NCBI GenBank assembly: GCA_964449815.1
Contig: CAYVGC010000005.1
Location: 1,275-65,274, forward strand
DNA: 64,000 nucleotides
DNA from: an uncultured Bifidobacteriaceae bacterium
GTDB lineage: Bacteria; Verrucomicrobiota; Verrucomicrobiia; Limisphaerales; UBA11358
Direction: 5' to 3'
The notes beneath the pieces are model-generated. The model saw nothing but the letters and a program-made list of their open reading frames with translations, was not told the DNA's origin and ran no database searches. Positions 18,892-48,455 of this stretch are shown in pieces. Position numbers and translations under genes: made by a program. Position 1 is the first letter of the stretch, and every line of letters starts with the position of its first letter.

Positions 18892-19084
18892 CGCGCCTCC
18901 GGCGCTGGAGCCGGCCGTGCGCCAGGGTGGCCGGCGGTAAAGACCCGGCCAAAGGCAGTTTGAGGTGGACGAACGGGGCAAAGGGCGTTTGAAATTACGA
19001 GCGTGTTTCGTGCGCGTTGAAAAAGCGGTGGAGGGCCACCGCACTCCAAGACGCTGGCGCGTTGACCGAGGGCCATCGAACCGC

Positions 19085-19228: not shown

Positions 19229-19265
19229 GTTTGAATTTCAACAACGTCAAAGGCGAACAATTAAA

Positions 19266-20513: not shown

Positions 20514-20525
20514 ACACAAATTAAA

Positions 20526-25148: not shown

Positions 25149-25162
25149 TACGATTTTTTTCA

Positions 25163-28146: not shown

Positions 28147-28470
28147 GATTTAGACCTTAAAACTCACTGTTGATTGAACGGCTATTTGTCCCGATTTCTA
28201 CTGCTTGTGGTTTTAGAATTCTTTTGCTACTACGGAATCAAGAAAAGCCGCATTTTTTACACAGTCACTTACACATACACAGTTTGCACCAGAAAAACTC
28301 ATTTTAATTCAAGGTGGTTGCGCTAGACCTAAAAGGACTTAAAAGCAAATCGTAGAAATCTAAAAAGCGCCTAAAACCCTAGTAAAACCGCCGTTTTTTC
28401 GTTGCCCGAACCGTTAAAATGTGTTACACATTACTTACACACTTTTGGTGGCTTTTTTAGGGGGGAAATC

Positions 28471-29679
28471 ATGCCAGAGCATCACCGTTTGATGGACGGA
28501 AAGCTTCATCTATACCGCCGCGAAAATAGCAGCTATTGGCAGTGTTCCACCTATCTCAATGAGAAGAACTGGCGCATATCCACAAAGGAGGACAGTCTTG
28601 CCTTGGCGAAAGATATAGCCTTGGACTGGTATCTCGGCTTGCGCGGCAAAAGTCGCAATGGCGATTTGAAAACCGGCAAAACCTTCAAAGATGCAGCCGT
28701 AAAATTCGTCGCCGAATATGCCATACTCACAGCCGGAGAACGCAACGCGCAATACGTGAAGGGACTCGGCGAAAAAATTAAACTTCATCTGATACCGTTT
28801 TTTGGCGACAAAGTTTTGTCCGAAATCACCCCCGGCCTGGTGCAGGAGTATCGCATCCACCGCGCAACATCGCGGATAAATCCAAAGACTGGTCAACCAA
28901 AACGACCGACACGCAGCACACTTCACAAAGAGATCGTGACGTTGCGGCACGTTTTGAAAACGGCCAACCGTCACGGATGGTTGCCCTACTTACCCGACCT
29001 CTCCGCACCCTACAAAACTTCGGGAAAGGTTACACATCGCGCTTGGTTTTCCCCGGAAGAATACAAGCGGCTTTACGACGCCACGCGCGAACGTGCGAAA
29101 CATCCCAAAAAATTACGCTGGAAAACGCAGTGTGAAAACTTCCATGACTACATCCTGTTCATGGCAAACACCGGGTTAAGGCCGGATGAAGCCATCCGCC
29201 TCGAATTTCGAGACGTTGCCATCGTCACCGATGAAGCAACGGGCGAACGCATCCTCGAAATCGAGGTTCGGGGAAAACGCGGTGTCGGCTACTGCAAAAG
29301 TATGCCCGGCGCTGTCCTACCCTTTGAGCGTTTGAAGAAACGCAAGCGGCCAGCGACGACTGACAGAGTTTTCGGAAAAACACAACATGAGCTGCTAAAC
29401 GCAATTCTCAAAGAATTGAATTTGAAATTTGATCGCGACGGCAACCGGCGCACCGCATACAGTTTGCGTCACACCTACATTTGTATGCGCCTCATGGAAG
29501 GAGCGGACATTTACCAAGTCGCAAAAAACTGCCGCACTAGCGTTGAAATGATCGAAAAATACTACGCTTCACATATTAAAAACACGCTGGACGCAGCGGC
29601 AATCAACGTGCGGAAGCCGAAACCGCCCAAGAAAAAACGCGCCACGCCCCGAAAAGACGAAAAAGACCCAGCAAATTGA
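28471..29679 (+). CDS. Tyrosine-type site-specific integrase (integrase 2)
   Basis: ATG 28471 is preceded by AGGGGGGAAA. Motifs: ANTGLRPDEA (Arg I), VRGKRG (Lys), YSLRHTYICMRL (box II Arg-His), VEMIEKYYASH (Tyr). It ends 53 bp before the tRNA-Leu gene. Confidence 0.85.
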   Translation: MPEHHRLMDGKLHLYRRENSSYWQCSTYLNEKNWRISTKEDSLALAKDIALDWYLGLRGKSRNGDLKTGKTFKDAAVKFVAEYAILTAGERNAQYVKGLGEKIKLHLIPFFGDKVLSEITPGLVQEYRIHRATSRINPKTGQPKRPTRSTLHKEIVTLRHVLKTANRHGWLPYLPDLSAPYKTSGKVTHRAWFSPEEYKRLYDATRERAKHPKKLRWKTQCENFHDYILFMANTGLRPDEAIRLEFRDVAIVTDEATGERILEIEVRGKRGVGYCKSMPGAVLPFERLKKRKRPATTDRVFGKTQHELLNAILKELNLKFDRDGNRRTAYSLRHTYICMRLMEGADIYQVAKNCRTSVEMIEKYYASHIKNTLDAAAINVRKPKPPKKKRATPRKDEKDPAN

Positions 29680-31132: not shown

Positions 31133-32035
31133 TCACATTTCAATTTCCGGCCCGTCCTTTTGACGGGTCTTGTCCACCAGCTTCCGCCAAGAGTCTTTAA
31201 CCACCGTCGCGGCTTGTTCCCGGATGCGGGACATGAAGGTGATGGATTTTTCCCACCATGTTCCACCCATCCCCACTTGCGCCACTTCGCCGCGCTTCAA
31301 TACGGCCCTCATCATGGCCTTAACTTCGTTCATCATTTTCACTTCCCGGACGGCCTTGAACCGCTCCGGGTCTTGCAGGATGCCCTTGCGCTTCATGGCC
31401 GTTGCTTCCTTGCCGATTTTCGGCTGCGGAATCTGGTCAATGCCCCGGTCTTTGAGCGACCGATGATCCACCCGTTCCGGGCGTCCGGCCTTTTCCAAGG
31501 CGGCATTGACGGCGTCAGCCCAGGACTGGCGTTGCCTGACCAGCAACCCCTTGTCATTCCATTCCCGTGGTTTCTTGGCGCTGAATTTTTCGCCGTCTAG
31601 CTTCCGCATGGTGCAGAGGATATGCACATGGGGATTCTTGCCAGCCTTATCATGATGGAGGGAGATTTCGGCAACCATGCCGGAAGCGACCAGCTCTTTT
31701 TTGGCCCAATCCAGCGCCGTCTGGAATTGGGCATCGGCGGGCAGTTCCTTGGGAACCGCCAGAATAAACTCGCGTGCAAGTTGTGCATCAACCCGCTTCT
31801 CGCCCGCCTCGACTTTGTTCCAAAGCGCCCCCGAATCATGCACCCATCCGGGCGCACCGTCGGGGGCTAAAATGTCCGAATGGATGACGCCCTTGGCTCG
31901 GCGGGCGTAGTCGAAAATTTTGTCACGAATCTCATCCTTGAGCTTCGTGCCTGCCCGATACGCGGCGGCGGCAATGACCGACCGCCCCCGCTTCTCGCGG
32001 CTGAAAATCTTCGCCTCTAGTCTAAATATCGCCAT
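31133..32035 (-). CDS. MobA/MobL (MOBQ-type) relaxase
   Basis: The N-terminus MAIFRLEAKIFSREKRGRSVIAAAAYRAG carries the catalytic Tyr region. ISLHHDKAGKNPHVHIL is the HxDxxxxNxHxH 3-His metal motif typical of MobA/MobL relaxases. Confidence 0.85.
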   Translation of the reverse strand: MAIFRLEAKIFSREKRGRSVIAAAAYRAGTKLKDEIRDKIFDYARRAKGVIHSDILAPDGAPGWVHDSGALWNKVEAGEKRVDAQLAREFILAVPKELPADAQFQTALDWAKKELVASGMVAEISLHHDKAGKNPHVHILCTMRKLDGEKFSAKKPREWNDKGLLVRQRQSWADAVNAALEKAGRPERVDHRSLKDRGIDQIPQPKIGKEATAMKRKGILQDPERFKAVREVKMMNEVKAMMRAVLKRGEVAQVGMGGTWWEKSITFMSRIREQAATVVKDSWRKLVDKTRQKDGPEIEM

Positions 32036-32564
32036 GCTCCTTACCAGTCGTCATGCAGGCTCTATTTAGAACAGTATATCAGAAATTAACGGCTCAGTCC
32101 CTCGGAGACTGGCTGTGAGAGCCAGTTTGCGCCGTTTCGATACAGGCAGAAAAATCTGCCCAGTTCGCCCATAATCAGACCGGCGCGGCTTGGCTGCGCC
32201 GCCCCTTCCGGTCAAACAAAAGCAAAAGGCAAAAACCCGGAATGGCGCGGTTATACATTGCTTCGCAACGTCACCGCGCAGGAGGCTCCAAAGCCGCCTC
32301 CTTGACCACGCTTTCACCGCCTCCGCTCTGACGCTCCGGCAGGGGCTTCCGCCCCTCGGCAGGCCACCCCGACACAAGGTGCGTTCCGCCCTTATGGAAC
32401 CCTGACCAAAGGCGTCACGCCCTTGGAACCGTGACCAACCGTGCGCCGGTTGGATGCCGCCAGAGCCTTGCCGCTCTGGACAGGGCAGCAGGGGCTTGCC
32501 CCTGACACCCGCTTTTCCCGTTTTGCCTTGCCGCGCAAACCGGGTCTTGCCTACCATTTTTAGA
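32036..32564. promoter_or_regulatory. Divergent intergenic region: candidate oriT and promoters
   Basis: Lies between the divergent relaxase and coupling-protein genes. Dense hairpins are present (GGAGGC...GCCTCC ~32281-32301, AGGGGC-TTCC-GCCCCT ~32340-32356, CCAGAGC...GCTCTGG ~32460-32481, CAGGGGC-TT-GCCCCTG ~32489-32505). A tandem direct repeat GCCCTT(A)TGGAACC(C/G)TGACCAA lies at 32388-32409 and 32419-32438, and each copy is preceded by AAGG(T)GCGT..CGCCCTT. Confidence 0.45.
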
Positions 32565-34046
32565 ATGTCCTATGGCAAGAAACAGTTGCCCGAATTCCAC
32601 CCGCAAACGGTGTTGCGGGATTGGGGCAATGGCGAAGGCTTCCGCCTTTCAGACGCCCTCACGGGCGTCTGTGTGTTCGGCGCAACCGGAAGTGGTAAAA
32701 CTTCCGGGCCAGCAAAGCACCTGGCCTACGGCTACCTAGCCGCCGGTTTCGGCGGGCTGGTGCTTTGTGCCAAGAAGGAGGAACGCCGCCAATGGGAACA
32801 ATGGGCGGCGGAAACCGAGCGGACGGACGACCTTGTCATCATAGATGCCAGCGGTCAAAACCGCTTCAATTTCATGGCATGGGAGGCCAGCCGCCCGGAG
32901 GCTGGCGGCGGCCTGACGATTAACATCGTCAATCTTCTGGACGAAATCGCTACGGCGATTTCCGGGGGCAGCGGGCAGACCGAAGGGGGCGGCGGATCAA
33001 ACAAGTTTTGGGAAGATGCCCTTCACCACATGAACACCAATCTGGTGGACTTGCCCTTGTTTGCCGAAATTCCCGTTTCACTTCCGCTGCTTGCCGACAT
33101 CGTCGCATCCGCTCCATTGAATCCAGAACAGGCCAGCAGTGATGAATGGAAGGAGCAAAGCGTGTGCGGCAAGATTTTGAGGGAAGCGGACGAGGCCACC
33201 AAAAAAGCCGACGCGGGAACCCGCGACGATTTCACACGATGCCAAAAATATTGGGAAGTGGAGTTTCCCAATTTGGCCGAAAAAACCCGCAGTATCATTA
33301 GCTTGACGTTTTCCATGCTGGCAAGGCCGCTTGTTACGCGGCCATTGCGGGAACTTTTTTCCGCCGACACCAACATCAAACCGGAGGACGCATTTGGGGG
33401 CAAGATCATCATCGTTGATTTGCCCGTCCAAGAATTTAGGCTCGTTGGCCGGATTGCCAACCTTGCTTGGAAATACTGCTTTCAAGTGGCCGTCTTGCGA
33501 CGGACACCACCGACCAAACCGGACGCCTATTTGCGGCCGGTTTTTTTATGGGCGGACGAAGCGCAAAATTTCGTCACGAATTTTGACGCCGAGTATCAGG
33601 CCACGGCAAGATCCGCTGGCGGATGCACCGTGTATCTGACGCAGAACCGCGAGAGCTACGGGCGAGTTTTGAAAAACATGAATGCGGTGGATTCCCTTTT
33701 GGGAAATTTGCAGTGCAAATTCTTTTGCCAGAACACCGGCTTAACAAACGATTGGGCATCGTTCATTTTGGGCCAACGCTGGGTCAAGACCACCAGCACC
33801 AGCGCCGGCCAGTCGCAGAATGACGCCACTCCCAAGAATCCCGACGAACAGCGCAGCCACAATTCCGGGGTGAACCGCAGCGAACAGAAAAAGCTCTTTG
33901 TCGAACCGGCGACCTTCACGACGTTGAAGCGCGGCGGGCCAGCTCATAATTTTCAGGTGGAGGCCATCGTCTATAATGGCGGCAATCTTTTTTATGACGG
34001 CAATCTTGCGTTGCCGTTCCGCCTGCTGACGTTCAACCAGCGATAA
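32565..34046 (+). CDS. Type IV coupling protein-like ATPase (TraG/TraD/VirD4 family)
   Basis: Walker A GATGSGKTS, Walker B-like VFLWADEAQNF and YLTQNRESY. ATG 32565 (MSYGKKQLPEF). No N-terminal TM segments seen. Confidence 0.7.
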   Translation: MSYGKKQLPEFHPQTVLRDWGNGEGFRLSDALTGVCVFGATGSGKTSGPAKHLAYGYLAAGFGGLVLCAKKEERRQWEQWAAETERTDDLVIIDASGQNRFNFMAWEASRPEAGGGLTINIVNLLDEIATAISGGSGQTEGGGGSNKFWEDALHHMNTNLVDLPLFAEIPVSLPLLADIVASAPLNPEQASSDEWKEQSVCGKILREADEATKKADAGTRDDFTRCQKYWEVEFPNLAEKTRSIISLTFSMLARPLVTRPLRELFSADTNIKPEDAFGGKIIIVDLPVQEFRLVGRIANLAWKYCFQVAVLRRTPPTKPDAYLRPVFLWADEAQNFVTNFDAEYQATARSAGGCTVYLTQNRESYGRVLKNMNAVDSLLGNLQCKFFCQNTGLTNDWASFILGQRWVKTTSTSAGQSQNDATPKNPDEQRSHNSGVNRSEQKKLFVEPATFTTLKRGGPAHNFQVEAIVYNGGNLFYDGNLALPFRLLTFNQR

Positions 34047-36102: not shown

Positions 36103-38985
36103 GTGACCCAAAACGGCATCACCCCGTATCACGCTTGTTACTATGCCCATGAGCTAACAAGACGTTGCCCTTCCGACAGCCTGCAAAAACTGGCTGCGAC
36201 GCTGGCTGACGCTCAGGTGGATTTGAACCCCCATCAAATTGATGCCGCCCTTTTCGCATTCCGCTCCCCCCTTTCAAAGGGTGCAATCCTGGCGGATGAA
36301 GTCGGCTTGGGAAAAACAATTGAGGCCGGGATTCTACTTTCGCAGAAATGGGCGGAGCAAAAGCGCAAACTTTTAATCATCGTCCCTGCCGCATTACGCA
36401 AGCAGTGGAATCAGGAACTTGCCGATAAATTTTTCCTTCCGTCTGTAATTTTAGAAAATCGCTCGTTCAATCAAATCATCAAACAGGGCAATCTCAATCC
36501 GTTCGACCAAAATGAAATCGTCATTTGTTCGTATCACTTTGCCCGCGCCAAAGACGTTTATGTAAAAAAGGTAAATTGGGATTTGGTCATCGTGGATGAG
36601 GCTCACCGCCTGCGAAATGTTTACAAGCCCACGAACCGCATTGCCAACGCAATCAAAAACGCAATTGCAGACGCGCCAAAAGTATTGCTGACGGCAACGC
36701 CACTGCAAAATTCAATTCAGGAACTTTATGGCTTGGTGAGCATCGTTGACGGTTTTACCTTCGGCGATCTCAAAAGCTTCAAGGCGCAATTTGGACTCCT
36801 ACGCACAGAAGAAGATTTTGCTGCCCTCCGTGAACGCATTAAGCCGGTAGTTCAGCGCACACTGCGACGGCAAGTGCTGGAATACATCAAATACACAAAT
36901 CGCATCCCGATTACGCAGGAATTCATCCCGTCAGAGGCAGAACAAAAACTTTATGATTTGGTTTCCGGTTATCTGCAACGCGAAACATTGTATGCGCTGC
37001 CTTCGAGCCAGCGCCAACTGATGACGCTCATTCTCCGAAAATTGCTGGCGTCTTCGACCTACGCGATTTCCGGCACATTAGACGCACTGGCGAGCCGCCT
37101 TGAAACGGCGGCTGCCAAAAATACTCCAACCGTAGACACTCCAGAAGAAGTCACCGCCGATTTCGAGGCAATTGATGAAGTTGAGGAAGAATGGGACGAA
37201 GATGAAACGCCAGAAAAAGCCGAGCGCGTCTACACGGAGGAAGACAAAGAACGGATACGAGCCGAAATAAAATCGCTGCGCGAATTCAAAGAGCTTGCCA
37301 CTTCCATCGTCAAGAATTCCAAAGGAGAAGTGCTTCTCACCGCGCTCAAAAAAGGCTTTGCGAAAGCGCGGGAACTCGGTGCGCCGGAAAAGGCAATCAT
37401 TTTTACCGAATCCACCCGCACACAGGAATATCTTTACCGGGTTCTCGAACAGACAGCCCATGCTGGCAAAATCGTCTTGTTCAATGGCTCAAACAAGGAT
37501 GCGAAGTCGAAAGCAATTTACGCCGCATGGATGGAACGGCACAAAGACACGGATCGTATTACCGGCGCCCCAAGTGCCGACATGAGACAGGCGCTAGTGG
37601 ATTATTTCCGCGATGATGCCGTCATCATGGTTGCTACGGAAGCAGCGGCAGAAGGAATTAACCTACAATTTTGCTCACTTGTGGTGAACTACGACTTGCC
37701 GTGGAATCCACAACGCATTGAGCAGCGGATTGGCCGCTGCCACCGCTACGGCCAGAAATACGATGTGGTTGTCGTAAATTTCCTGAACAAAAACAACGCT
37801 GCCGACCAACGCGTGTATGAACTTCTCCGCGACAAATTCCAACTTTTCAGTGGCGTCTTTGGTGCAAGTGACGAAGTGCTTGGCAGCATTGAATCTGGCG
37901 TAGATTTTGAGAAACGCATTGCCGACATTTATCAAAATTGCCGCACACCAGATCAAATTGAATTTAATTTCAATACGTTGCAAAGGGATTTGGAAGTCAG
38001 AATTGATGAGCGGATGCACCAAACACGGCAGAAGTTGCTGGAAAATTTTGATGAAGCCGTCCAAGAAAAGCTGCGCCTGGGCAAATTGCAAACAGAGGAA
38101 ACCCTTGGGCGCTATGAACAATGGCTGTGGCAAATCACCCGATTTTTTCTTTCGGATTACGCAAATTTTGAAGATGGCAAAAACGCCTTTATTTTGACCC
38201 GCAATCCATTTCCAGAAGAAAACATTCATCCCGGCCCGTATCGTTCAGGCAAAAATGTTGAAGATGCAAATCTCTACCGTGTCGGACATCCATTAGCACA
38301 ACGTATCATTAGCAGGTGTATGGAATTGCCGACACCAGAAGCGGAATTGATTTTTAATTATTCCCAAACGGGACGAAACATTTCAGTAATCGAGCCGTTA
38401 TGTGGCAAGGGCGGATGGCTGGTTGTTCAAAAGCTCACAGTCACGGCGTTTGAAACGGAAGACCATGTTTTGCTGGCTGGCGTAACGGATGACGGCAAAG
38501 TGCTAGATGACGAGCTATGCCGTCGGCTGTTGTCGCTTTCAGCTTCAATAAATCCGCTCCAAACTGACGGGAATGGCGAAGGTCACAAAAATATTCTCCG
38601 CGATTTGCTGGACGTAGAACGCCAGCTTATTTTCGATGATTTAGAACAAAAGAACGGCTCGTATTTTGAGGGAGAATTGGACAAGCTGGATCGCTGGGGT
38701 GAAGACCAGCGTGCTTCCCTGAAATTGGCTCTCAAAGAATTGGAAGACCAGATTAAGGAAACTCGCCGCAATGCGCGGTTGGCGGGCAGCCTGCCTGAAA
38801 AATTAAAACTGGAACGCCAAAAGCGCGACATGGATTCAAAGCGCGACGAGGCTTGGAAACAATACGAGCAAGCGGCCAAAGACATCGAAGCGAAAAAAGA
38901 TGGATTAATGGATGAGGTCGAAAAACGCCTGAAACAACAAATCACCGAAAAGGTTCTTTTCAAAATCAAATGGCAAGTGAAGTGA
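36103..38985 (+). CDS. SNF2-family helicase/ATPase with a ~340-aa C-terminal extension ending in a coiled coil
   Basis: SNF2 N-domain: LNPHQIDAALFAF...ILADEVGLGKTIEAG (motif I), VIVDEAHRLRN (motif II), LLLTATPLQNS (motif III). Helicase C: MVATEAAAEGINLQ, NPQRIEQRIGRCHRYGQ (motif VI). The C-terminal 620-960 region is unassigned and Lys/Glu-rich at its end. Confidence 0.85.
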   Translation: MTQNGITPYHACYYAHELTRRCPSDSLQKLAATLADAQVDLNPHQIDAALFAFRSPLSKGAILADEVGLGKTIEAGILLSQKWAEQKRKLLIIVPAALRKQWNQELADKFFLPSVILENRSFNQIIKQGNLNPFDQNEIVICSYHFARAKDVYVKKVNWDLVIVDEAHRLRNVYKPTNRIANAIKNAIADAPKVLLTATPLQNSIQELYGLVSIVDGFTFGDLKSFKAQFGLLRTEEDFAALRERIKPVVQRTLRRQVLEYIKYTNRIPITQEFIPSEAEQKLYDLVSGYLQRETLYALPSSQRQLMTLILRKLLASSTYAISGTLDALASRLETAAAKNTPTVDTPEEVTADFEAIDEVEEEWDEDETPEKAERVYTEEDKERIRAEIKSLREFKELATSIVKNSKGEVLLTALKKGFAKARELGAPEKAIIFTESTRTQEYLYRVLEQTAHAGKIVLFNGSNKDAKSKAIYAAWMERHKDTDRITGAPSADMRQALVDYFRDDAVIMVATEAAAEGINLQFCSLVVNYDLPWNPQRIEQRIGRCHRYGQKYDVVVVNFLNKNNAADQRVYELLRDKFQLFSGVFGASDEVLGSIESGVDFEKRIADIYQNCRTPDQIEFNFNTLQRDLEVRIDERMHQTRQKLLENFDEAVQEKLRLGKLQTEETLGRYEQWLWQITRFFLSDYANFEDGKNAFILTRNPFPEENIHPGPYRSGKNVEDANLYRVGHPLAQRIISRCMELPTPEAELIFNYSQTGRNISVIEPLCGKGGWLVVQKLTVTAFETEDHVLLAGVTDDGKVLDDELCRRLLSLSASINPLQTDGNGEGHKNILRDLLDVERQLIFDDLEQKNGSYFEGELDKLDRWGEDQRASLKLALKELEDQIKETRRNARLAGSLPEKLKLERQKRDMDSKRDEAWKQYEQAAKDIEAKKDGLMDEVEKRLKQQITEKVLFKIKWQVK

Positions 38986-41630
38986 GCATAAAGGCACCGA
39001 AATCTGTGCTTCACGACATCTACGAATGGTCAATCGGAAGACCTTCGTGGCTACGCGATGCCTTGAGGCGAATCATAACAAATGGAAAATTGGACGATGC
39101 CGATTTGACGGAACTTGAACACTTGTGCCGCCAAACGCCAAACCCTACCGGCGTTGACGGTAAACCACTCGCGGCTACCCCGCTGGCAGAGGAGCACTTG
39201 CCCGCTGGCCCATCCTCCAAAGAATCCGTCACCATTGAGTATTTGAATGATCTGGCCGGAGTCAACAAGTTGCCATCCGGCCAAAAAATTACCTTCGGAA
39301 CGTCGCCTGGACTAACCATTTTCTACGGCGACAACGGCTCTGGCAAATCGGGCTACGCCCGCGTCATCAAGAAGGCTTGCCGCTCGCGTGGAACCGCTCC
39401 GGTAATTCGCCCGGATGCGTTTTCGGAAACGCCTGTCCACGCCTCTTGCAAAATTGGCATCAATGTCAGCGGCACAGGCTCCGAAATCCATTGGAAGGAC
39501 AACCAAGCATCTGACGCAAAACTTGCCAGTGTCTTTGTATTCGACGGTGACGCAGCGAAGGATTATTTGACCGCCGACGGCCCTGCCAGCTTTACGCCTT
39601 TCGGCTTGGACGTTTTGCCGAAGCTCTCCAAGGCGTGTGACGCTCTCGCAACTAGAATAAGAAACGAAGTCGCAAATGTAACCGCTGCAATCGAAGTCGG
39701 GAAAACGGCACTGAACAAATATCCCAACACGGCTGTCGGCGCAACCCTGGACAAACTCAATTCCAAGACTTCTTCCGCAAATGTGCTGCTTTTGGGAAAG
39801 CTGACCGATACAGAAACCAAAAGGCTCGCCGAATTGCGGACGCTTTTGAGTTCCGACCCAAAAAAGAAAGCCGCTGAAACAAGGGCGGCAAAAAAGCGCA
39901 TTGAGACTTTCAAAACCCTCCTCCTCGGAAATGCCGCCCTGCTTTCCGCCGAGAAAATCAACCAACTGAAAATTGCTTTTGAAAACACGGCGGCTACGGA
40001 AGCCGCCGCAAAAGCCGCCGCCGAAAGCAAGTTTGCAGAGGGTGTCGTGACCGGAACCGGCAGCGATTTGTGGCGAGCCATGTGGGATGCCGCAAAATCG
40101 TTTTCAACCACGACCGTATATCCCGGTAAAGACTTTCCTCAAACGGGCAACCAGGACCGTTGCGTCCTTTGCCAACGCCCATTCGGGGATGATGCCGAAG
40201 CAGTCGCTCTCGCAGGCTCCTTTGTGAAGTTCTGCAACGAGGATGTTCAGAATTCCTCAAAAACTGCCCGTAAAAAGTTGAATACTGAAAAGGCAGCGTT
40301 TGAAACCAAATCCGGCCTAAAAGCGGAACATGAAAAAATCGCCACTGATTTGGCGGCCTTGACAGAAATAGAAATCAAGTTGTTGGCCGAGTTTATTGTT
40401 TCCGCCGACGATTGCCTCAGCACGGTCAAAAAGTCCTTTGCCGATGACAAATGGGCGCAGCCCGTTCAGCTTGCCGCCGCCCCGACTTTAATTCTCACCG
40501 TCCTGATCGAAAATCTCGAAAAGCGAGCCGTCACGGAGGAATCCGCAGACGACCCAGTGGCACGAAAAAAACTTCAAACCGACCTTAACGAACTTGCGGC
40601 AAAAGAATGGCTCAACACGGTCGAGCAAGACGTGAAAGACCAAATCCAAAGGTTCAAAAACCTCGATGGACTAAATGAACGGCTCGCTGACACAAGAACA
40701 AACCAAATCACGACGAAGAATTCCGAACTCACGCAGGAATTGATAACCGATGCCTACTGCAAGCGCTTCGCCGACGAACTCGCGCAACTCGGCATCCGTT
40801 CCTTGAGTGTGAATCTTGAGGCCATCGGCGGTGCCAAAGGCGAGAAGAAATTTGGCGTTCGGTTACAGGGAGCGAAGGGAAAAGCTAATGTCTTTGAGAT
40901 TGCCAGCGAAGGCGAACAACGCTGCATCGCTTTGGCCTCTTTCCTCGCGGAACTCTCCCAATGCTCGCACAACTCGGCCCTTGTATTTGACGACCCGGTT
41001 TCCTCGCTGGACCACTTTTTTCGCGGCAGAATCGCTTTCCGTCTCTCCAAAGAAGCGCAGCACCGCCAAGTCATCGTTTTTACTCACGACACGGTATTTC
41101 TGAATGATTTAATATCGGAGGCAGGAACCGCCAAGGTTCCGTGCTCCACATTCTATTTGCGTTGGGAGGGCAGTAATCCCGGCAAAGTCGAGGCGGGCTT
41201 GCCGTGGGATTGCAAATCCCCACAAGACCGATTGGATAAACTGGAAAAAATGCAAAAGGCTTTGGAAAAGAAATGGCAGCCTTACCCTGACGAAGCCTTG
41301 AAAGCCGAAATGGGGAACGCATACAGCGACTTGAGGGCGACCCTGGAGCGCATTATTGAGAAGGTCATTTTCGCAGATGTTGTTTTCCGCTTCCGTTCGT
41401 ATGTCAATCTCGGAAGGCTCGACGAAGTTGTTGGCTTTTCCCAAACGGAATGTGACGAGGTTCTGCGGCTTTTCAAAAAGTGCTGTGATTATACCCCGGC
41501 TCACGATGCGCCCGCAGGGAAACATGCGACCGTTCCCGCACCTGCGGAACTCGCAAAAGACATTGACGACACCAAAAAACTGTTGGAAACCATAAAGTCT
41601 CGCCGGAAAACCATAAAAGTCGCTGCCTAA
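38970..41630 (+). CDS. AAA_13-type ABC ATPase with a coiled-coil CxxC zinc hook (RloC/PrrC-like architecture)
   Basis: Walker A YGDNGSGKSG, signature-like SEGEQRCIALASFL, Walker B ALVFDDPVSSLD and H-loop VIVFTHD. A long helical insertion contains DRCVLCQRPF (CxxC). It also has a ~110-aa N-terminal extension and a ~165-aa C-terminal domain. The ATG overlaps the SNF2 gene by 16 nt. Confidence 0.75.
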   Translation: MASEVSIKAPKSVLHDIYEWSIGRPSWLRDALRRIITNGKLDDADLTELEHLCRQTPNPTGVDGKPLAATPLAEEHLPAGPSSKESVTIEYLNDLAGVNKLPSGQKITFGTSPGLTIFYGDNGSGKSGYARVIKKACRSRGTAPVIRPDAFSETPVHASCKIGINVSGTGSEIHWKDNQASDAKLASVFVFDGDAAKDYLTADGPASFTPFGLDVLPKLSKACDALATRIRNEVANVTAAIEVGKTALNKYPNTAVGATLDKLNSKTSSANVLLLGKLTDTETKRLAELRTLLSSDPKKKAAETRAAKKRIETFKTLLLGNAALLSAEKINQLKIAFENTAATEAAAKAAAESKFAEGVVTGTGSDLWRAMWDAAKSFSTTTVYPGKDFPQTGNQDRCVLCQRPFGDDAEAVALAGSFVKFCNEDVQNSSKTARKKLNTEKAAFETKSGLKAEHEKIATDLAALTEIEIKLLAEFIVSADDCLSTVKKSFADDKWAQPVQLAAAPTLILTVLIENLEKRAVTEESADDPVARKKLQTDLNELAAKEWLNTVEQDVKDQIQRFKNLDGLNERLADTRTNQITTKNSELTQELITDAYCKRFADELAQLGIRSLSVNLEAIGGAKGEKKFGVRLQGAKGKANVFEIASEGEQRCIALASFLAELSQCSHNSALVFDDPVSSLDHFFRGRIAFRLSKEAQHRQVIVFTHDTVFLNDLISEAGTAKVPCSTFYLRWEGSNPGKVEAGLPWDCKSPQDRLDKLEKMQKALEKKWQPYPDEALKAEMGNAYSDLRATLERIIEKVIFADVVFRFRSYVNLGRLDEVVGFSQTECDEVLRLFKKCCDYTPAHDAPAGKHATVPAPAELAKDIDDTKKLLETIKSRRKTIKVAA

Positions 41631-41657
41631 ACACCATTGCTTTGCTAGGATTTTACA

Positions 41658-43628
41658 ATGTCACAACAACCTGAAAAATTTGAAGCGACTTCGGCCAGCA
41701 TCACCGATGAGCAAAAGGCGAAACTGAAATCGCTTTTTCCTGAAATCATCACCGAGGGCGGGAAGATTGATTTTGACCGGCTCAAGCTCACGCTTGGCGA
41801 GGCGGTGGATGCGGGCAAGGAACGCTACGGAATGAACTGGCCCGGCAAGGCGGAGTGCTTCAAAACAATTCAGCAGTCCAGCATGGCAACCCTCATCCCC
41901 GCGCGGGATGAGTCTGTAAATTTCGACACGACGGAAAACCTGATTATTGAGGGTGATAATTTAGAAACGCTCAAGCTGCTACAAAAGGCGTATCTTGGCA
42001 AAGTGAAGATGATTTACATTGATCCGCCTTACAACACGGGTAACGACTTTATTTATCCTGACAATTTTAGCGAAAGCCTCGAAACGTATCTTCGATATAC
42101 CGGACAGACCGACGAGGAAGGGCGCAAATTTTCTACGAACTCAGAAACTGACGGACGCTTTCATTCCAAATGGATGAATATGATGTATCCGAGACTTTTT
42201 CTCGCTCGGAATTTATTGCGTGAAGACGGCGTTGCGTTCATCAGCATTGATGACCACGAAGTAAATAATTTGCGGAAGCTCTGCGACGAAGTGTTTGGGG
42301 AAGAAAATTTTGTTGCCACCTTAGTTTGGGAGAAATCAAAAAAAGGTGATGCAAAACTGATTGCCGTCAGTCATGAATACGTTCTGGTCGTTGCGAAGAA
42401 TAAGCAATACATGATCGAGAAAGGCATCTGGCGGCGAAAGAAGCCAGGCGCGGAAGAAGTTCTTTCTCACTATCAGCAAATCCGGCAGACCTTCGACGAC
42501 AAACACGACGCCATTTCTAATGCCATGCGAGCTTGGTATTCCTCGCTTCCCAAAAATGACCCGCGTCGCGCGCATGAGCATTATCGTTGGTCGGACAAAC
42601 GCGGCTTGTATTTCGCCGATAATTTCGCAGGCCCGGATGATGGCCGAGAATCAAGACCCCGATATGACATTATACACCCAGAAACAAAGAAGCCATGCAA
42701 GAAGCCTTCAACGGGGTGGCGTTGGGACGAGGAACGCACAAAGCAGGCATTGTTAGCAGACCCCCCGCTTATCCATTTCGGCCCGGATGAAACCACCATT
42801 CCATGTCGCAAGAGCTATCTTGCCGACATTAGCTATGAGCCGTTTGCTTCCGTGTTTTATCGAGATGGTCGCGCTGGGACTCTCGAACTGGAAAAGCTGG
42901 TCGGAAAAGGATTAGTCGAATTCCCCAAAGATAAAGATATTCTTGCCGACTTTATTGATCTTGCGACTGAACCGGATTCCATAGTGTTGGATTTTTTCGC
43001 GGGAAGTGGAACAACGGCACAAGCCGTGTTGGAAAAAAATATCCAAGATGGAGGACGGCGAAAATTTGTTCTTGTTCAGTTGCCCGAACCGGCCACTCAC
43101 ACTCAATTTCCAACCATCGCCGACATTACGAAACAACGTGTCCGCGCTGTCTTAAAGAAACTGCATGATGAAGGCGTAAGCCAGCTTCCGCTACAAGGTC
43201 AGCATAAGGGGGATCATGGCTTTAAAGTTTTCAAGTTGCAAAGCTCGAATTTCAAAGCATGGAACACGGAGCAGCCAAAGGACGAGGCGGAACTCGGCAA
43301 GCAATTGACTTTGCATGTGGATCACCTCGTCGCGGGTCGCACACAAGACGATGTGCTTTACGAATTGCTGCTCAAGTCTGGCTTTCCGTTGGATACGAAA
43401 GTCGAACAAATTGCGATGGCCGGGAAGATCGTCTTTTCCATCGCCGATGGTGCGATGCTGATTTGTCTCGAAAAGGAACTGACTCCAGAAGTCATCAAGG
43501 CGATGGCGGAGAAAAAGCCTGAGCGAGTAGTTTGTCTCGACGCTGGTTTTGCTAACAACGACCAGCTTAAAACAAATGCCGTCCAGACGATGAAGGCAAA
43601 AGGGGTGACGAAGTTCCAAACGGTATGA
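41658..43628 (+). CDS. mod: Type III restriction-modification DNA methyltransferase (Mod, beta-class N6A/N4C)
   Basis: Motif IV MIYIDPPYNTGNDF lies upstream of motif I VLDFFAGSGTTAQAV (the beta-class order), with a variable region between them. 27 nt after the ATPase stop. Confidence 0.85.
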   Translation: MSQQPEKFEATSASITDEQKAKLKSLFPEIITEGGKIDFDRLKLTLGEAVDAGKERYGMNWPGKAECFKTIQQSSMATLIPARDESVNFDTTENLIIEGDNLETLKLLQKAYLGKVKMIYIDPPYNTGNDFIYPDNFSESLETYLRYTGQTDEEGRKFSTNSETDGRFHSKWMNMMYPRLFLARNLLREDGVAFISIDDHEVNNLRKLCDEVFGEENFVATLVWEKSKKGDAKLIAVSHEYVLVVAKNKQYMIEKGIWRRKKPGAEEVLSHYQQIRQTFDDKHDAISNAMRAWYSSLPKNDPRRAHEHYRWSDKRGLYFADNFAGPDDGRESRPRYDIIHPETKKPCKKPSTGWRWDEERTKQALLADPPLIHFGPDETTIPCRKSYLADISYEPFASVFYRDGRAGTLELEKLVGKGLVEFPKDKDILADFIDLATEPDSIVLDFFAGSGTTAQAVLEKNIQDGGRRKFVLVQLPEPATHTQFPTIADITKQRVRAVLKKLHDEGVSQLPLQGQHKGDHGFKVFKLQSSNFKAWNTEQPKDEAELGKQLTLHVDHLVAGRTQDDVLYELLLKSGFPLDTKVEQIAMAGKIVFSIADGAMLICLEKELTPEVIKAMAEKKPERVVCLDAGFANNDQLKTNAVQTMKAKGVTKFQTV

Positions 43629-46564
43629 AGCTGCAATTTGACGCAAAGCAGGAATTCCAGATTGCCGCAGTAAATTCTGTGGTTGACCTCTTTGACGGCC
43701 AGCCCTTGAACAAAGGGGACTTTCAAATTTCTTTTGAAACAAAGGGTAAGGGGCTTTTCGGCAGTCTCGTGCAAACGGAATTAGGCTTGGGCAATGCGCT
43801 CGTGATTGATCGCGAGACGATTCTTAAAAACCTTCAGCTTGTCCAGGAGCGCAATGATTTGGACGCGGACAAACATCTGCTACCGCAGGATTACAGCGCA
43901 AATGCTCCCGCCGCACTGAATTTCTCCGTTGAGATGGAAACCGGCACGGGCAAGACGTATGTGTATCTGCGGACGGTTTTTGAACTCAACAAAAAGTATG
44001 GGTTCAAGAAATTTATCATTGTTGTGCCGAGCGTGGCGATCCGCGAAGGCGTGCTGAAAAATCTGCAAATTACAAGCGACCACTTCAAGGCGCTCTACAA
44101 CAATGTGGAATTCGAGTATTTTGTTTATGACGCGAAAAAGGCGAGCCGCTTGCGGCAATTCGCAGTGAGCAATCAGATTCAAATTCTTGTCATTAACATT
44201 GATGCCTTCCGCAAAAATTTTGCAGGCACAGACGATGAGAAGAAAAGCAATGTAATCTTCAAAGAAGCGGATAAGTTATCCGGGCGTCAGCCGATTGAAT
44301 TTGTCCGTGCGACGAATCCGATTGTGATAATTGACGAGCCACAAAGCGTTGACAACACGGAGAAGGCGCAAGAGGCGATCCGGTCGCTTAACCCGCTTTG
44401 CACGTTGCGCTATTCGGCTACTCATGCGAATCCCTACAATCTGGTTTATTCGCTGAATCCAATCCGGGCGTTTGAACTCCGACTAGTAAAGCAAATCGTG
44501 GTTTCCAGTGTGACCGGCGAAGGCGCGCAAAATGATGCCTACGTCAAACTGGTTTCCATTGATCGAAAGAACGGCATCAAGGCAAAAGTGGAAATTGACG
44601 TTCAGACGAATGAAGGGCCAAAGCGGAAAGCCGTCACGGTAAAGCATGAAACCGATTTATTCATGGCATCAAAAGAACGTGGAAATTATCGGGATGGTTA
44701 TCTCATAACTGAAATCAACGCTGAACCTGGCAATGAATTCATTCAGTTCAACAACGGAAAAACCCTCAACATCGGTCAGGAGTTCGGAGGCATCCGGGAC
44801 GACCTTTGGCGAGTGCAAATCCGCAACACCATTCGCCGCCATCTCGACAAGGAAATCGCCTTAAAGAACAAAGGCATCAAAGTTTTGAGCCTGTTTTTCA
44901 TTGATAAGGTTGCCAATTACCGCTCTTACGACGAGCAAGGACAGCCGGTGAAGGGGAAATTTGCCGAGTGCTTTGAAGATGCGTTCAAGGAATTGATCGC
45001 GCAAGAAAAATACAAAGGTCTATTGCCGTTCCCGCTTGAAAGGCTTCATAACGGTTATTTCGCCCAGGATAAAAAGGGCGTCTTCAAAGACACCAACGGA
45101 AGCACTCAAGCCGATGATGACGTTTACAGCCTCATTATGCAAAGAAAAGAGGATTTGCTTTCGTTGGATGAACCGTTGCGGTTCATTTTCAGCCATTCCG
45201 CATTGCGGGAGGGTTGGGATAATCCAAACGTGTTCCAGATTTGCACGCTGAACGAAACTCGGTCTGTGATGAAAAAGCGTCAGGAAATCGGACGCGGCCT
45301 GCGCCTACCCGTCAATCAACATGGCGAGCGAGTATTTGATGAAAACATCAATAAGCTGCTCGTTGTGGCAAATGAGAGTTACGAGGATTTTGCCAAAGCG
45401 TTACAGAATGAATACGAGCAGGATTGTGGCGTCACGTTCGGCATAGTCCCCAAGTTTGCCTTTGCAAACCTGATGCAAATTGTGGCCGGTGAAGGAGTGC
45501 CGCTTGGCCGCGATGTATCGGTCAAGATTTTCGACGGGTTGGTTTCAAAAGGGATCGTCACTGAAAATGGCAAAATCAAACCGACATTTGACCCCAAAAC
45601 CCCAGGGTTAGACCTCGGCCTGCCCCCCGAACACGCGAACTTGCGTTCGGATATTATTGATGTCTTACAATCTTATCAGTTGGAACGTCACGTCAAAAAG
45701 GACGAAGAAGGACAACGGTTGCGTTTCAAGAAAGAGGTAACGCTTGACCCCGAATTTCAAGAGCTTTGGAATCGCATCAGTCCAAAGACTTCGTTTTCTG
45801 TTGAATACCAGACGGACACACTGGTCGCCAATGCGGTCAAAGCCATCAAAGCGATGGACAAAATCAAACCCGTCAAAATCCAAGTCACTGAGGCTGGTTT
45901 AGGCGTGGGGAAATCCGGCGTAAGCACGGACGTGCTTCGCGAGGCCGCCGAAACCGTAGTTTTTCGCGGGGCTGTGCCGGACGTGGTTGCCTATCTACAA
46001 GGCGAGACGGAACTAACCCGTTCGACTTTGGTGAGAATTCTCAAAGAATCAAACCGGCTTGCTGAATTCCTAGTCAACCCGCAAAAGTTTATGGACGCGG
46101 TTGCAGCAATCCTCAAGGTGCAACTTCACAAACTGATGATTGACGGCATTAAGTATGAGAAAATCGCCGGGGAGGAATACAGCATGACGCTTTTCGAGGA
46201 AAAAGAGATCATCGGCTACCTCAACAACCGCTTGGAAGTAAACCACAGCGTCTATGATGCCGTGGTTTATGATTCTGAAATTGAGAGGGAGTTTGCGGAA
46301 AAACTGGACAAGCGGCAGGACATCAAACTTTTTGTAAAGCTGCCGGATTGGTTCAAGATTGAAACGCCGCTCGGCACATACAATCCAGATTGGGCGATTT
46401 TGAAACATGACAACACCGTGCTGTATCTGGTGCGAGAAACCAAAGGCACAAAGAATTTCGAGAAGCTAAGAAATGTCGAAGCCGAAAAAATCCGCTGCGG
46501 ACGCAGGCACTTTGAAACGCTCCAAGTTGATTTTGATGTTGCGACTTCGGCGAGCGAAATTTGA
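43625..46564 (+). CDS. res: Type III restriction enzyme Res subunit (SF2 helicase + PD-(D/E)xK nuclease)
   Basis: Motif I METGTGKTYVY, motif II VIIDEPQS, and SALREGWDNPNVFQI with the QEIGRGLRL motif VI. C-terminal nuclease region YNPDWAILK...LVRETKG. The ATGA start/stop overlaps Mod. Confidence 0.85.
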   Translation: MKLQFDAKQEFQIAAVNSVVDLFDGQPLNKGDFQISFETKGKGLFGSLVQTELGLGNALVIDRETILKNLQLVQERNDLDADKHLLPQDYSANAPAALNFSVEMETGTGKTYVYLRTVFELNKKYGFKKFIIVVPSVAIREGVLKNLQITSDHFKALYNNVEFEYFVYDAKKASRLRQFAVSNQIQILVINIDAFRKNFAGTDDEKKSNVIFKEADKLSGRQPIEFVRATNPIVIIDEPQSVDNTEKAQEAIRSLNPLCTLRYSATHANPYNLVYSLNPIRAFELRLVKQIVVSSVTGEGAQNDAYVKLVSIDRKNGIKAKVEIDVQTNEGPKRKAVTVKHETDLFMASKERGNYRDGYLITEINAEPGNEFIQFNNGKTLNIGQEFGGIRDDLWRVQIRNTIRRHLDKEIALKNKGIKVLSLFFIDKVANYRSYDEQGQPVKGKFAECFEDAFKELIAQEKYKGLLPFPLERLHNGYFAQDKKGVFKDTNGSTQADDDVYSLIMQRKEDLLSLDEPLRFIFSHSALREGWDNPNVFQICTLNETRSVMKKRQEIGRGLRLPVNQHGERVFDENINKLLVVANESYEDFAKALQNEYEQDCGVTFGIVPKFAFANLMQIVAGEGVPLGRDVSVKIFDGLVSKGIVTENGKIKPTFDPKTPGLDLGLPPEHANLRSDIIDVLQSYQLERHVKKDEEGQRLRFKKEVTLDPEFQELWNRISPKTSFSVEYQTDTLVANAVKAIKAMDKIKPVKIQVTEAGLGVGKSGVSTDVLREAAETVVFRGAVPDVVAYLQGETELTRSTLVRILKESNRLAEFLVNPQKFMDAVAAILKVQLHKLMIDGIKYEKIAGEEYSMTLFEEKEIIGYLNNRLEVNHSVYDAVVYDSEIEREFAEKLDKRQDIKLFVKLPDWFKIETPLGTYNPDWAILKHDNTVLYLVRETKGTKNFEKLRNVEAEKIRCGRRHFETLQVDFDVATSASEI

Positions 46565-46930: not shown

Positions 46931-47538
46931 TCATAGTAAAAGTTCGATTATGGCATTGATGCACAGAATAACCGAAATCCGTTTAACGGAAAAGCACCCC
47001 GCCGTCCAAGAGGCACAAGCAGCCGCTCGCCTTCAGCGTGGTAAGCCACCGCGCAGCTTGTGCCACTTGTCCTTGCCCATTTGCGTCTGACATTTGACCG
47101 TCCTTGTTCCGCCGTGCGCCTTTGGGCTTGCCCCATCCCCGCCAAGCCACGGCTCCCGGCTACTCCCGGCCAGCTAAAAGTCAGAGCAGGCCGGAATTGA
47201 GCCTTTGGCGACCCTGCGGGGCTAGAGGGTTTTGGTTAGTGTTTTTGACATGGCGCGTTTTTTAAGAACAGACGCCGCCGAGGTCTATCCGTAGTGCGCT
47301 TGCTGCTACGCCATCTTTTTCAAACTTCTTAATTCCCGCTATCGCGGGGCGTTTAATTTCCAGCGACGAAGGGCATGGGCCACGCCAGCGACCCGGCTAT
47401 CAGGTAACGCCGAATCTTTCGCTGTCATGCCCCATGCACGCCGGAAATAAAACTCATATAGCTCAAAAAATGGCTCCGCGTGGGGTGAAGCAAGCGACAT
47501 ACGGCGAGACACGAGCGGCGAACATCAAAAAAAAGCTT

Positions 47539-47925
47539 ATGAAAAACAAAATTAAAATTGAAGCAGCGACTCCAGCAAACGCCGATCAGCTATCATCAAA
47601 TAGAACTGACAGCCGGGCAAAAATTGATTTCAACCGCAGAAATGCGAACCGCGCATTGAACACCGAAAGACTTTTGGCTTTGCTCCGCAGGGAAACGCCG
47701 AGCTTCTTTGATCTCGCCGAGGTTGTCGGCAAATGGGTTTGGATTCAGTTTGATGGTAAGCAGCCCGTCACCGTCACCGCCGTTTTGTCAGAGCTTGGCT
47801 TTCATTGGAACAACAAGCGTCAGTCTTGGCAGCACCCTTGCGGAATGTTTCGTGACCAGTCCGTGCGGTTTGACCCCCGCAGAAAATACGGCAGCTATTT
47901 CGCTGCCGACCAGAAACCCGCCTAA
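47539..47925 (+). CDS. Hypothetical protein (transfer leading-region type)
   Basis: ATG 47539 (MKNKIKIEAATP...). The C-terminal part reads WVWIQFDGKQP...GFHWNNKRQSWQHPCG. It lies directly upstream of radC. The start is uncertain (the ORF opens at 47434). Confidence 0.45.
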   Translation: MKNKIKIEAATPANADQLSSNRTDSRAKIDFNRRNANRALNTERLLALLRRETPSFFDLAEVVGKWVWIQFDGKQPVTVTAVLSELGFHWNNKRQSWQHPCGMFRDQSVRFDPRRKYGSYFAADQKPA

Positions 47926-47939
47926 CCGGAGAAATCGCC

Positions 47940-48455
47940 ATGAATACCACCGCCATTTTTCCGAGCATGGAAACGCTTGTTAAACCGTTCAAATTTCCGG
48001 CCAGCCCGTATGAATACCGCGTGACCGCCTTGCGCGAATGTCCGACGCCGGAGAGCTTGCAGCAGTGCGAAACACCTGACAAAGCCGCCGATTATTGGCG
48101 GATGCACATTGCCACCCATCCGCATTTTAACCCCGATTGCGAATGTTTGGCCGTCCTGTTACTCAACACGCGCAAGCGCGTTAAAGGCCACCAGCTTGTT
48201 TCAATCGGCACAATGGACACCATTTTAGTCCATCCCCGCGAAGTGTTCCGGCTCGCCATCATCGCCGCCGCCAGTGCCGTGATTGTCATGCACAACCACC
48301 CAAGCGGCGAAAGCACCCCGTCAGAGGCAGACATCAAAGTGACCCGCGACCTAATACGCGCCGGACAGCTTTTGAAAATGGAATTGATTGACCACGTCGT
48401 AATAGGCAACGGCAATTTTTCATCACTTCGCGCCCTTGGTTATTTTTACGCCTAA
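47940..48455 (+). CDS. radC: RadC-like JAB/MPN domain protein
   Basis: JAMM motif VMHNHPSGESTPSEADIKVTRDL and ELIDHVVIG. 171 aa. Confidence 0.85.
   Translation: MNTTAIFPSMETLVKPFKFPASPYEYRVTALRECPTPESLQQCETPDKAADYWRMHIATHPHFNPDCECLAVLLLNTRKRVKGHQLVSIGTMDTILVHPREVFRLAIIAAASAVIVMHNHPSGESTPSEADIKVTRDLIRAGQLLKMELIDHVVIGNGNFSSLRALGYFYA

Follow-up and report, generated by a model that had tools for sequence, protein, structure and literature searches.

Background

Type III restriction-modification (R-M) is the textbook case of a two-gene system, and the genes of such a system, mod and res, form one half of the locus described here, an operon of four co-directional genes at positions 36103 to 46564 of a window of 64,000 nucleotides (nt) (the whole stretch of DNA that was analysed, from contig CAYVGC010000005.1 of an uncultured Verrucomicrobiota genome). 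The other half comprises genes for an SNF2 ATPase and for a zinc-hook ABC ATPase, and for the latter the relevant precedents are the RloC and PrrC proteins. RloC, whose prototype comes from Geobacillus kaustophilus, was defined by ABC motifs, a CX2C zinc-hook/coiled-coil insert and a C-proximal Arg-X3-Glu-X36-52-His motif in proteins of 658-897 amino acids (aa), whose genes are linked only now and then to R-M loci of type I or type III (8/72; PMC2610378). It is a tRNase that excises the wobble nucleotide; its zinc hook keeps it silent, and its DNA-dependent ATPase, for which linear DNA is the best activator, switches it on (PMC3458546). PrrC and RloC carry nuclease domains that have been classed as HEPN, and genes for ABC-HEPN proteins, along with RhuM, were noted in 2013 to be often embedded in R-M operons (PMC3710099). 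The embedding of defence genes has been surveyed for Hma, BREX, DISARM and type I R-M systems, and not for type III (10.1101/2024.01.29.577857).

A first-pass annotation of the window, made by a model from the sequence alone, suggested that the four genes are one composite, possibly undescribed, defence system. Our comparative analysis led us to a layered reading, which we consider probable: a type III Mod/Res enzyme, an SNF2 accessory gene that depends on it, and a member of the RloC family carried as cargo between SNF2 and mod.

Results

The operon and its type III core

The genes of the operon, and the one domain to which we refer separately, are as follows.

36103..38985, + strand: SNF2 (Swi2/Snf2) ATPase, DrmD-like, 960 aa, GTG start (open reading frame list, profile matches)
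38970..41630, + strand: zinc-hook ABC ATPase, RloC-type, PADLOC PDC-S06 family, 886 aa (profile matches, motifs)
41115..41627, + strand: C-terminal domain of this ATPase, aa 716-886, a putative HEPN-like anticodon-nuclease domain (R789-x3-E793-x51-H845, structural model)
41658..43628, + strand: type III Mod, beta-class N6/N4 DNA methyltransferase, 656 aa (Pfam, PADLOC, motifs)
43625..46564, + strand: type III Res, superfamily 2 (SF2) helicase-like ATPase with a C-terminal PD-(D/E)xK endonuclease, 979 aa (Pfam, PADLOC, motifs)

The list of open reading frames (ORFs) and a check of the junctions reproduced exactly what the first-pass annotation had given for the arrangement, i.e. four co-directional genes at these coordinates, of which SNF2 and the ATPase gene overlap by 16 nt, the ATPase gene and mod are separated by 27 nt, and mod and res share an ATGA overlap; a motif check likewise recovered every catalytic motif it had named in the four proteins.

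The type III core that had been proposed is borne out by the profile searches. Mod matches the Pfam family N6_N4_Mtase (PF01555, 1.6e-30) and, over its full length, PADLOC MTase_III (2.4e-197), and its motif IV (DPPY122) lies ahead of motif I (FAGSG447). Res matches Pfam ResIII, DEAD and RE_endonuc (2.2e-38) as well as PADLOC REase_III (E=0, aa 1-972), and exhibits the motifs GTGKT107, DEPQ237 and QEIGRGLR553, followed by a C-terminal PD...ETK; against the NCBIfam model PRK15483 it scores 364 bits, which misses the cut-off of 564. Judged by their sequences, Mod and Res are a conventional type III R-M enzyme; enzymes of this class hemi-methylate an asymmetric site and need two unmethylated sites in inverse orientation for cleavage.

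The SNF2 protein

The 960-aa protein matches Pfam SNF2-rel_dom (6e-33) and Helicase_C, with motifs I, II, III and VI intact (GLGKT68, DEAH165, TATP197 and QRIGRCHR541). Its strongest resemblance is to DrmD: the PADLOC model PDLC02619 matches at 3e-208, confined to aa 33-674, while the NCBIfam models DISARM_DrmD_b (NF038318; 701 bits) and DISARM_DrmD (NF038317; 268 bits, aa 39-931) miss their cut-offs of 950 and 610 bits. PADLOC HmaA matches at 5e-52, far under DrmD, and the BrxHI|BrxHII models at 1e-68 and 2e-49. Homology therefore predicts a DrmD-like, double-stranded DNA (dsDNA)-dependent ATPase. The C-terminal third (aa 596-960) was modelled as an alpha/beta domain between coiled coils; a Pfam search of the C-terminus at E up to 10 returned nothing credible, and neither Pfam nor a fold search of the C-terminal third revealed a recognisable nuclease domain. 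In public annotation the gene is called "SNF2-related protein" or "RapA".

SNF2 is linked to Mod and Res, and the linkage is asymmetric

Homologues of SNF2 were collected with an alignment query from at least 588 species genomes, and the best 80 of them (55-88% identity) were used as anchored loci, in which neighbours were called by tblastn with a handful of query proteins and by simple ORF calling (loci are cited below by our own L and P numbers). These 80 loci come from Verrucomicrobiota, Acidobacteriota, Bacteroidota, Planctomycetota, Nitrospirota, Chloroflexota, Patescibacteria, Pseudomonadota and others. Mod was found downstream of SNF2 on the same strand in 71 of them and Res in 58, and all misses but four are contigs that end too early; given at least 6 kb of downstream flank, 51/51 loci have Mod and 49/51 have Res. 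The non-random linkage of SNF2 to Mod/Res that the first-pass annotation had supposed is thus real. It spans two very divergent flavours of Mod/Res, that of the window, with its RE_endonuc C-terminus, and a type with a ResIII-only protein of ~900 aa, and the nearest SNF2 neighbour has the same flavour in 67 of 71 cases.

The flanks of this SNF2-Mod-Res triad are not conserved: no family occurs in more than two of 54 upstream or 37 downstream neighbourhoods, and a search for an extra conserved gene beside the triad found none. The triad is therefore a self-contained module and does not belong to a mobile-element backbone. About a dozen triad loci have a small upstream helix-turn-helix (HTH) gene, of differing HTH families; the window has none. 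The gene order of the window matches that of the triad, with one inserted cargo gene. As individual observations, L096 (218-7585) has the order Mod-SNF2-Res rather than SNF2-Mod-Res, and Res of L088 (13511-16420) contains an in-frame stop, which may reflect a pseudogene or a sequencing error.

When the search was anchored on Res instead, Mod was adjacent in 56/56 loci and SNF2 was present in 14/56. Its presence upstream follows the identity to the Res of the window: 8/13 loci at 55% or more, 4/10 at 48-55%, 2/13 at 45-48% and 0/20 at lower identity; even so, SNF2 is missing from L324, whose Res is 83% identical to that of the window. Loci with SNF2 keep Mod and Res and loci with Res are often without SNF2, so it is SNF2 that depends on Mod/Res, and not vice versa. 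Such asymmetric linkage is the signature of an accessory gene, and SNF2 is a dependent accessory gene of type III R-M.

Many SNF2 loci sit in large chromosomal contigs, and the triad is also found on plasmids, with 51 matches, 32 of them to conjugative ones. The triad has cultured representatives. On the Klebsiella pneumoniae plasmid NZ_CP023488 (L407, 8763-18515) an HTH gene is followed by SNF2 (45% identity), a methyltransferase (1046 aa, N6_N4) and a ResIII helicase (1120 aa, with no RE_endonuc match); this enlarged version of the triad adjoins ssb, parB, psiB and psiA, i.e. the leading region of an IncF conjugative plasmid, and blocks of the same type are found on many plasmids of Klebsiella, Salmonella, Raoultella and Citrobacter. 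The Rhizobium plasmid p7 (NZ_CP072872, L408) has the order HTH, SNF2, Mod, a GmrSD/HNH insert and Res. Directly after its Res, and convergent to it, lies a gene for a Rad50-like ATPase (18193-20691; AAA_23/SMC_N, weak AAA_13).

The junction between SNF2 and mod is a slot for cargo

SNF2 and mod are at most 150 nt apart in 27 of 71 loci, while in 42 they are separated by 0.5-4.1 kb of extra genes; inserts of more than 500 bp between mod and res occur in 14 of 57. The inserted ORFs are co-directional with the triad in 79 of 86 cases. They encode AAA_15/21/23 ABC ATPases, RhuM, Schlafen/AlbA with HATPase_c_4, DUF3800, GmrSD and OLD-TOPRIM proteins, as well as YhcG nucleases, HNH, Bro-N and DUF2130 proteins and members of PADLOC PDC-S05, PDC-S23 and mad3. 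Such genes are typical of defence, and at the SNF2-mod junction independent cargo of this kind has been inserted again and again, an instance of the embedding known from Hma, BREX, DISARM and type I R-M.

One recurrent occupant is a second family of zinc-hook ABC ATPases, which has no tblastn similarity to the ATPase of the window. These proteins have ~780 aa, their hook reads CPxC, and the C-terminus bears a canonical HEPN motif, RNQVGAH. Members of this family in the slot, the first of them in the closest triad relative of the window, are:

L085, 13025-15409
L088, 6977-9307
L090, 4329-6659
L117, 3617-5944
L151, 13151-15451

Two-gene defence cassettes were also seen in or beside triads (L019, 2085-5428; L004, 7965-9718; the P0004 contig), comprising AAA with Peptidase_S8, AAA_21 with DUF4276 and, directly after Res, a CBASS-like pair of patatin and CD-NTase. 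Directly after Res of L001 there is an HEPN_AbiV gene (17536-18240).

The zinc-hook ATPase has the sequence features of RloC

The occupant of the slot in the window matches PADLOC PDC-S06 (PDLC04891) at 2.4e-181, with aa 14-880 aligned to model positions 4-858 of 858; in Pfam it matches AAA_13 (1e-16), SMC_N and AAA_21, and its best relative of solved structure is Rad50. Its motifs are GDNGSGKS120, CVLC398, SEGE646, LVFDDP671 and THD705, and 20/20 family members share, without variation, the Walker A motif (G120..K126S127), C398-V-L-C401, S646EGEQR, LVFDDP671-676 and T705H706. The CxxC hook lies ~270 aa past Walker A and ~245 aa ahead of the signature motif, within a putative coiled-coil insert. 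In the C-terminal domain, R789-x3-E793-x51-H845 occurs with identical spacing in all 20 members, which are 874-900 aa long. Taken at the level of sequence, all the features by which RloC is defined are found in this protein, in agreement with the first-pass annotation, which had placed it among ATPases of the PrrC/RloC kind.

The AlphaFold2 model of aa 716-886 (pLDDT 77.6) is a helical bundle whose top Foldseek matches in the Protein Data Bank are HEPN proteins (2hsb, 7bxo, 1wwp, 1ufb, 5yep and 1wol). Ahead of the ABC head lies a conserved segment (aa 1-107, 38970-39290), with W20, R24-P25, W27 and D30-ALRRI35, whose ~100 aa have no Pfam match and are not mentioned in the definition of RloC (PMC2610378); Pfam searches of this segment and of the C-terminal domain at E up to 10 yielded nothing credible and no HEPN family. 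By analogy with RloC, the ATPase is a probable tRNA-cutting back-up.

The ATPase family is mostly free-standing

A genome scan with the single ATPase sequence gave nothing and an alignment query was needed. The resulting 163 ATPase-anchored loci are ~10% near type III Mod/Res and ~90% free-standing; the clades at 28-35% identity are essentially free-standing (SNF2 in 0/52 loci given at least 6 kb on both flanks). Conversely, the ATPase is present in 0/80 SNF2-anchored and 0/56 Res-anchored loci. The first-pass annotation had asked whether both SNF2 and the ATPase are syntenic with Mod/Res elsewhere, and the answer is affirmative for SNF2 and negative for most of the ATPase family, whose distribution mirrors that of RloC.

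In the clade of the window's own ATPase (57-78% identity) all sampled loci, L001, L164, P0004, L404 and L405, have SNF2-ATPase-Mod-Res, L405 with an additional HIRAN gene. The ATPase gene can also lie after Res (L002, L019) or be separated by other cargo (L004, L405). In the clade at 40-55% identity, a DUF2130 gene stands directly upstream in 7 of 10 loci, which may indicate a two-gene DUF2130+ABC module; members of this clade accompany the triad in L002, L004, L168 and L171 and occur without it, beside type I R-M, in L406. Loci concerned are:

L002, 8706-9983
L004, 6677-7972
L406, 7411-8946
L166-L169, L171 and L009

DUF2130 alone adjoins SNF2 in L139 and L147.

Discussion

Proposed mechanism

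The mechanism that we propose builds on gene anatomy, motifs, family assignments, asymmetric linkage and the cargo slot, all of which were observed directly, and would involve an interaction, physical or functional, of SNF2 with Mod/Res as well as an RNase activity of the ATPase. Mod would methylate one strand of an asymmetric site, and Res, an SF2 motor switched by ATP and joined to a PD-(D/E)xK nuclease, would cut unmethylated DNA. SNF2 would most likely act on the DNA beside the Mod-Res complex and, by translocating along dsDNA or by remodelling, would broaden restriction or make it more secure, in parallel with the Snf2 and methyltransferase pairs of class 1 DISARM, type 3 BREX and ARMADA. 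The recurring pairing of Snf2 proteins with strand-asymmetric adenine methyltransferases, in these systems and in Hma and the DUF499-centred BREX-related (BR) systems, suggests a shared role on DNA, next to the complex that reads the methylation. The RloC-like ATPase would remain silent until its DNA-dependent ATPase sensed DNA ends, arising from Res or from a phage attack on R-M, which, from what is known of RloC, are a plausible trigger; once activated, it would cut tRNA anticodon loops and halt translation, as a second line of defence.

Alternative explanations

Several points weigh against this layered reading. With respect to the nuclease, the HEPN matches of the C-terminal domain are weak (E 0.05-0.8, template-modelling scores 0.4-0.6), there is no canonical HEPN Rx4-6H motif, as no Arg lies 4-6 residues ahead of H845, the Pfam AAA_13 alignment ends at profile position 595 of 713, short of the domain, and the PADLOC PrrC match is marginal (1e-4). 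The fold search with the C-terminal third of SNF2 returned coiled-coil noise and no informative match, and very divergent partners could escape the tblastn calls on which the neighbourhood counts rest. The 16-nt overlap and the stable order of four genes in the window's clade could be signs of a functional integration of the ATPase in this lineage, and SNF2 might be an effector in its own right that does no more than share the methylation mark of Mod.

A version that we hold to be possible, if unlikely, goes further in the same direction as our reading: SNF2 would be a true third subunit of a distinct type III class, in which the slot docks back-up effectors and the whole forms a wired two-stage circuit. 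Where Mod2Res1 slides passively in one dimension, SNF2 would then impose directed translocation or remodelling, thereby closing the escape routes from type III restriction, single-orientation sites and protein-coated DNA, and the RloC-like nuclease would be triggered by DNA ends made by Res. Rather doubtful is a version with two pathways sharing one methyltransferase, in which SNF2 reads the mark of Mod and blocks unmethylated DNA on its own, as DrmD/DrmMI do. It draws on the alignment of DISARM_DrmD across SNF2 (aa 39-931), on the recurrence of Snf2 with N6-methyltransferases in DISARM, type 3 BREX, ARMADA and Hma/BR, and on L096, where SNF2 stands between Mod and Res; against it, SNF2 lacks a recognisable nuclease domain, and the retention of Res in 49/51 loci indicates that SNF2 with Mod alone is not the selected unit. 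That all four proteins are needed in one obligate machine, as the composite system of the first-pass annotation would have it, we find improbable. The tight and probably translational coupling of the genes speaks for it, and so does the order kept throughout the window's clade (the window and the five loci named above), but the absence of the ATPase from the 80 SNF2-anchored and 56 Res-anchored loci, its mostly free-standing family, its varying position (L002, L019, L004, L405) and the unrelated cargo that fills the slot elsewhere leave little room for such a unit.

Two explanations deny the link with R-M altogether. SNF2 might belong to a mobile-element backbone, serving conjugation, establishment or anti-restriction in the leading region, and there are indeed relaxase, type IV coupling protein or replication genes near the triad in the window, L001, L002 and P0004, the Klebsiella IncF triad stands beside ssb, psiB and psiA, and 32 of the 51 plasmid matches are conjugative; the lack of any recurrent flanking family and the many loci in large chromosomal contigs make this very unlikely. 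Equally, an SNF2 gene left over from DISARM, a free-standing ATPase gene and a type III R-M system of the ordinary kind might have come to lie together by chance, and the dense composite island around it, with two integrases, AbiU2, AbiV, GmrSD/HEC-05 and a broken type IIG gene, is a place where this could happen. We give that explanation hardly any credence, in view of a 51/51 linkage that holds in numerous phyla, with both flavours of R-M and between flanks that are unrelated, and of co-directional genes whose frames overlap or nearly abut; the unconserved flanks and the 55-88% range of identity speak against the recent spread of a single element. The layered reading, with SNF2 as a dependent accessory gene and the ATPase as cargo, therefore remains the one we prefer.

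The surrounding island

The operon is housed in a composite defence island. GC content falls from ~0.60 to ~0.48 across its tract (low-GC stretch ~25-47 kb of the window), and together with an integrase, a MobA relaxase and a TraG/TraD-like protein upstream this upholds the mobilizable-island setting suggested by the first-pass annotation. Upstream of the operon the order is:

16478-18109: piece of a type IIG restriction enzyme-methyltransferase, Mrr_cat and ResIII
18085-18963: piece of a type IIG restriction enzyme-methyltransferase, Helicase_C
20526-21275: stand-alone HEPN_AbiU2 gene
22799-23824: integrase, tyrosine recombinase, 5 kb from the integrase at 28402-29679
24453-25726: stand-alone HEPN_AbiV gene, then a sigma-70 region-2 protein
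26011-28146: GmrSD_N fused to a C-terminal Schlafen/AlbA_2 domain, PADLOC HEC-05 match
28402-29679, + strand: integrase, tyrosine recombinase (Pfam)
31133-32035, - strand: MobA/MobL relaxase (Pfam)
32454-34046, + strand: TraG/TraD-like coupling protein (Pfam)

The two tyrosine-recombinase genes, 5 kb apart, suggest that two or more integrated elements make up the island. HEC-05 is one of the Hma-embedded candidates reported to be experimentally active. Both type IIG pieces cover just the first ~580 of 1646 model positions and are followed by 99-nt and 51-nt direct repeats (18547-19238), so that 16478-19240 resembles a type IIG gene, broken or truncated, beside a repeat element; ARAGORN calls a doubtful 97-nt 'tRNA-Val' within this stretch (18345-18441). 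Downstream of the operon (47434-48455) there follow an ORF of 163 aa that matches no family and a RadC-like gene with a JAB domain, RadC being frequent on mobile elements, and housekeeping genes restart at ~49.9 kb. SdhA, encoded in the neighbourhood, shares 89% identity with a subdivision 3 MAG.

A search for att-like direct repeats around the island found just short, chance-like ones, by which its ends are not definable, a scan of 35.2-47.6 kb for promoters and terminators gave counts equal to the shuffled expectation, and megablast of the operon against plasmids gave no match. As the flanks of the triad are not conserved among loci, the integrase, relaxase and coupling protein are context and lie outside the system.

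Significance

The triad represents a phylum-spanning type III subclass, found in at least 588 species genomes and carried by conjugative plasmids from Klebsiella, Salmonella and E. coli, with a dependent Snf2 motor that annotation barely labels. If the motor does work with Mod and Res, it would provide a mechanistic link from type III R-M to DISARM, type 3 BREX, ARMADA and Hma, and the type III version would be a simple and tractable system in which to probe the pairing of Snf2 with a strand-asymmetric adenine methyltransferase. In addition, the triad supplies the search for defence genes through "guilt-by-embedding" with a new scaffold, and its RloC-like cargo offers a natural setting, so far rare, for studying how an RloC-type anticodon nuclease is coupled to a restriction enzyme.

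Comparison with known systems

No existing model names the set of four genes, yet each gene is recognised separately, as DrmD-like, PDC-S06, MTase_III and REase_III. No name or description of the SNF2-Mod-Res triad was found in the literature searched, which included few subscription journals and not REBASE, so that this absence is not proof.

With canonical type III R-M (EcoP1I/EcoP15I, Mod2Res1) the locus shares a beta-class Mod, a Res that joins SF2 and PD-(D/E)xK domains and the overlap of mod with res, and it differs in the linked SNF2 gene upstream of mod, in the cargo within gene gaps and in a PRK15483 score under the equivalog cut-off. The ATPase resembles RloC in its ABC motifs, CxxC hook, R-x3-E-x51-H, length of 886 aa, which is within the range, and occasional type I/III linkage, and differs from RloC and PrrC in the extra conserved N-terminus of ~100 aa and the lack of Rx4-6H. 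Like the PrrC gene, in its type Ic setting, it is embedded in an R-M operon; we rejected PrrC itself as an identification, since PrrC proteins have 341-416 aa, are hookless and are always found in a type Ic hsd locus, whereas this protein has 886 aa, a CxxC insert and a type III context, and the PrrC match has an E-value of just 1e-4. Membership of PADLOC PDC-S06 is indicated by the full-length match to its hidden Markov model, and genes embedded in other defence systems were the source from which the PDC families were proposed; PDC-S06, for which no experimental validation was found in the literature searched, is defined as a single-gene candidate, unlike the setting seen here.

Class 1 DISARM likewise has a DrmD-like SNF2 gene directly upstream of that for an adenine methyltransferase marking asymmetric sites, but here the methyltransferase is a type III Mod (PF01555) and not DrmMI, and the effector is Res. 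Class 1 DISARM was rejected as an assignment: no DrmA, DrmB (DUF1998) or DrmC (PLD) domains are present among the ORFs at 16-53 kb, as the first-pass annotation had also noted, and the DrmD cut-offs are missed. The Hma and DUF499-centred BR systems, too, combine a Snf2 helicase, a methyltransferase and an ATPase and serve as scaffolds for embedded defence genes, and the reference of the first-pass annotation to Hma as helicase-methylase-ATPase was apt in words only. The ATPase of Hma, however, is a DUF499 AAA+ protein of STAND/ORC type, not ABC/Rad50-like, its methylase is a 5-methylcytosine enzyme (PADLOC 2021) or BrxXI-like N6 (2026 study) instead of a type III Mod, and its helicase bears the nuclease, with no separate Res. 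As HmaC gives no match, HmaA a weak one (5e-52), the ATPase and methylase differ and Res is present, Hma was rejected as well, and so was MADS, for which PADLOC reports just marginal mad3 and mad8 matches. Type 3 BREX (BrxHII) and ARMADA (ArmA) share with the locus a Snf2 ATPase and an N6-adenine methyltransferase in a methylation-based defence operon; there a RapA-like Snf2 stands by a PglX-type methyltransferase, whereas the present locus has no BrxC, PglZ or YprA partner, and its SNF2 has no N-terminal Tudor domain, the helicase core beginning at ~aa 35.

The individual parts of the operon are familiar, but the SNF2-Mod-Res triad is widespread and lacks an annotation. We assign the locus to a widespread subclass of type III R-M that apparently has no name, with a linked SNF2 gene and a slot for cargo, filled here by a member of the RloC family.

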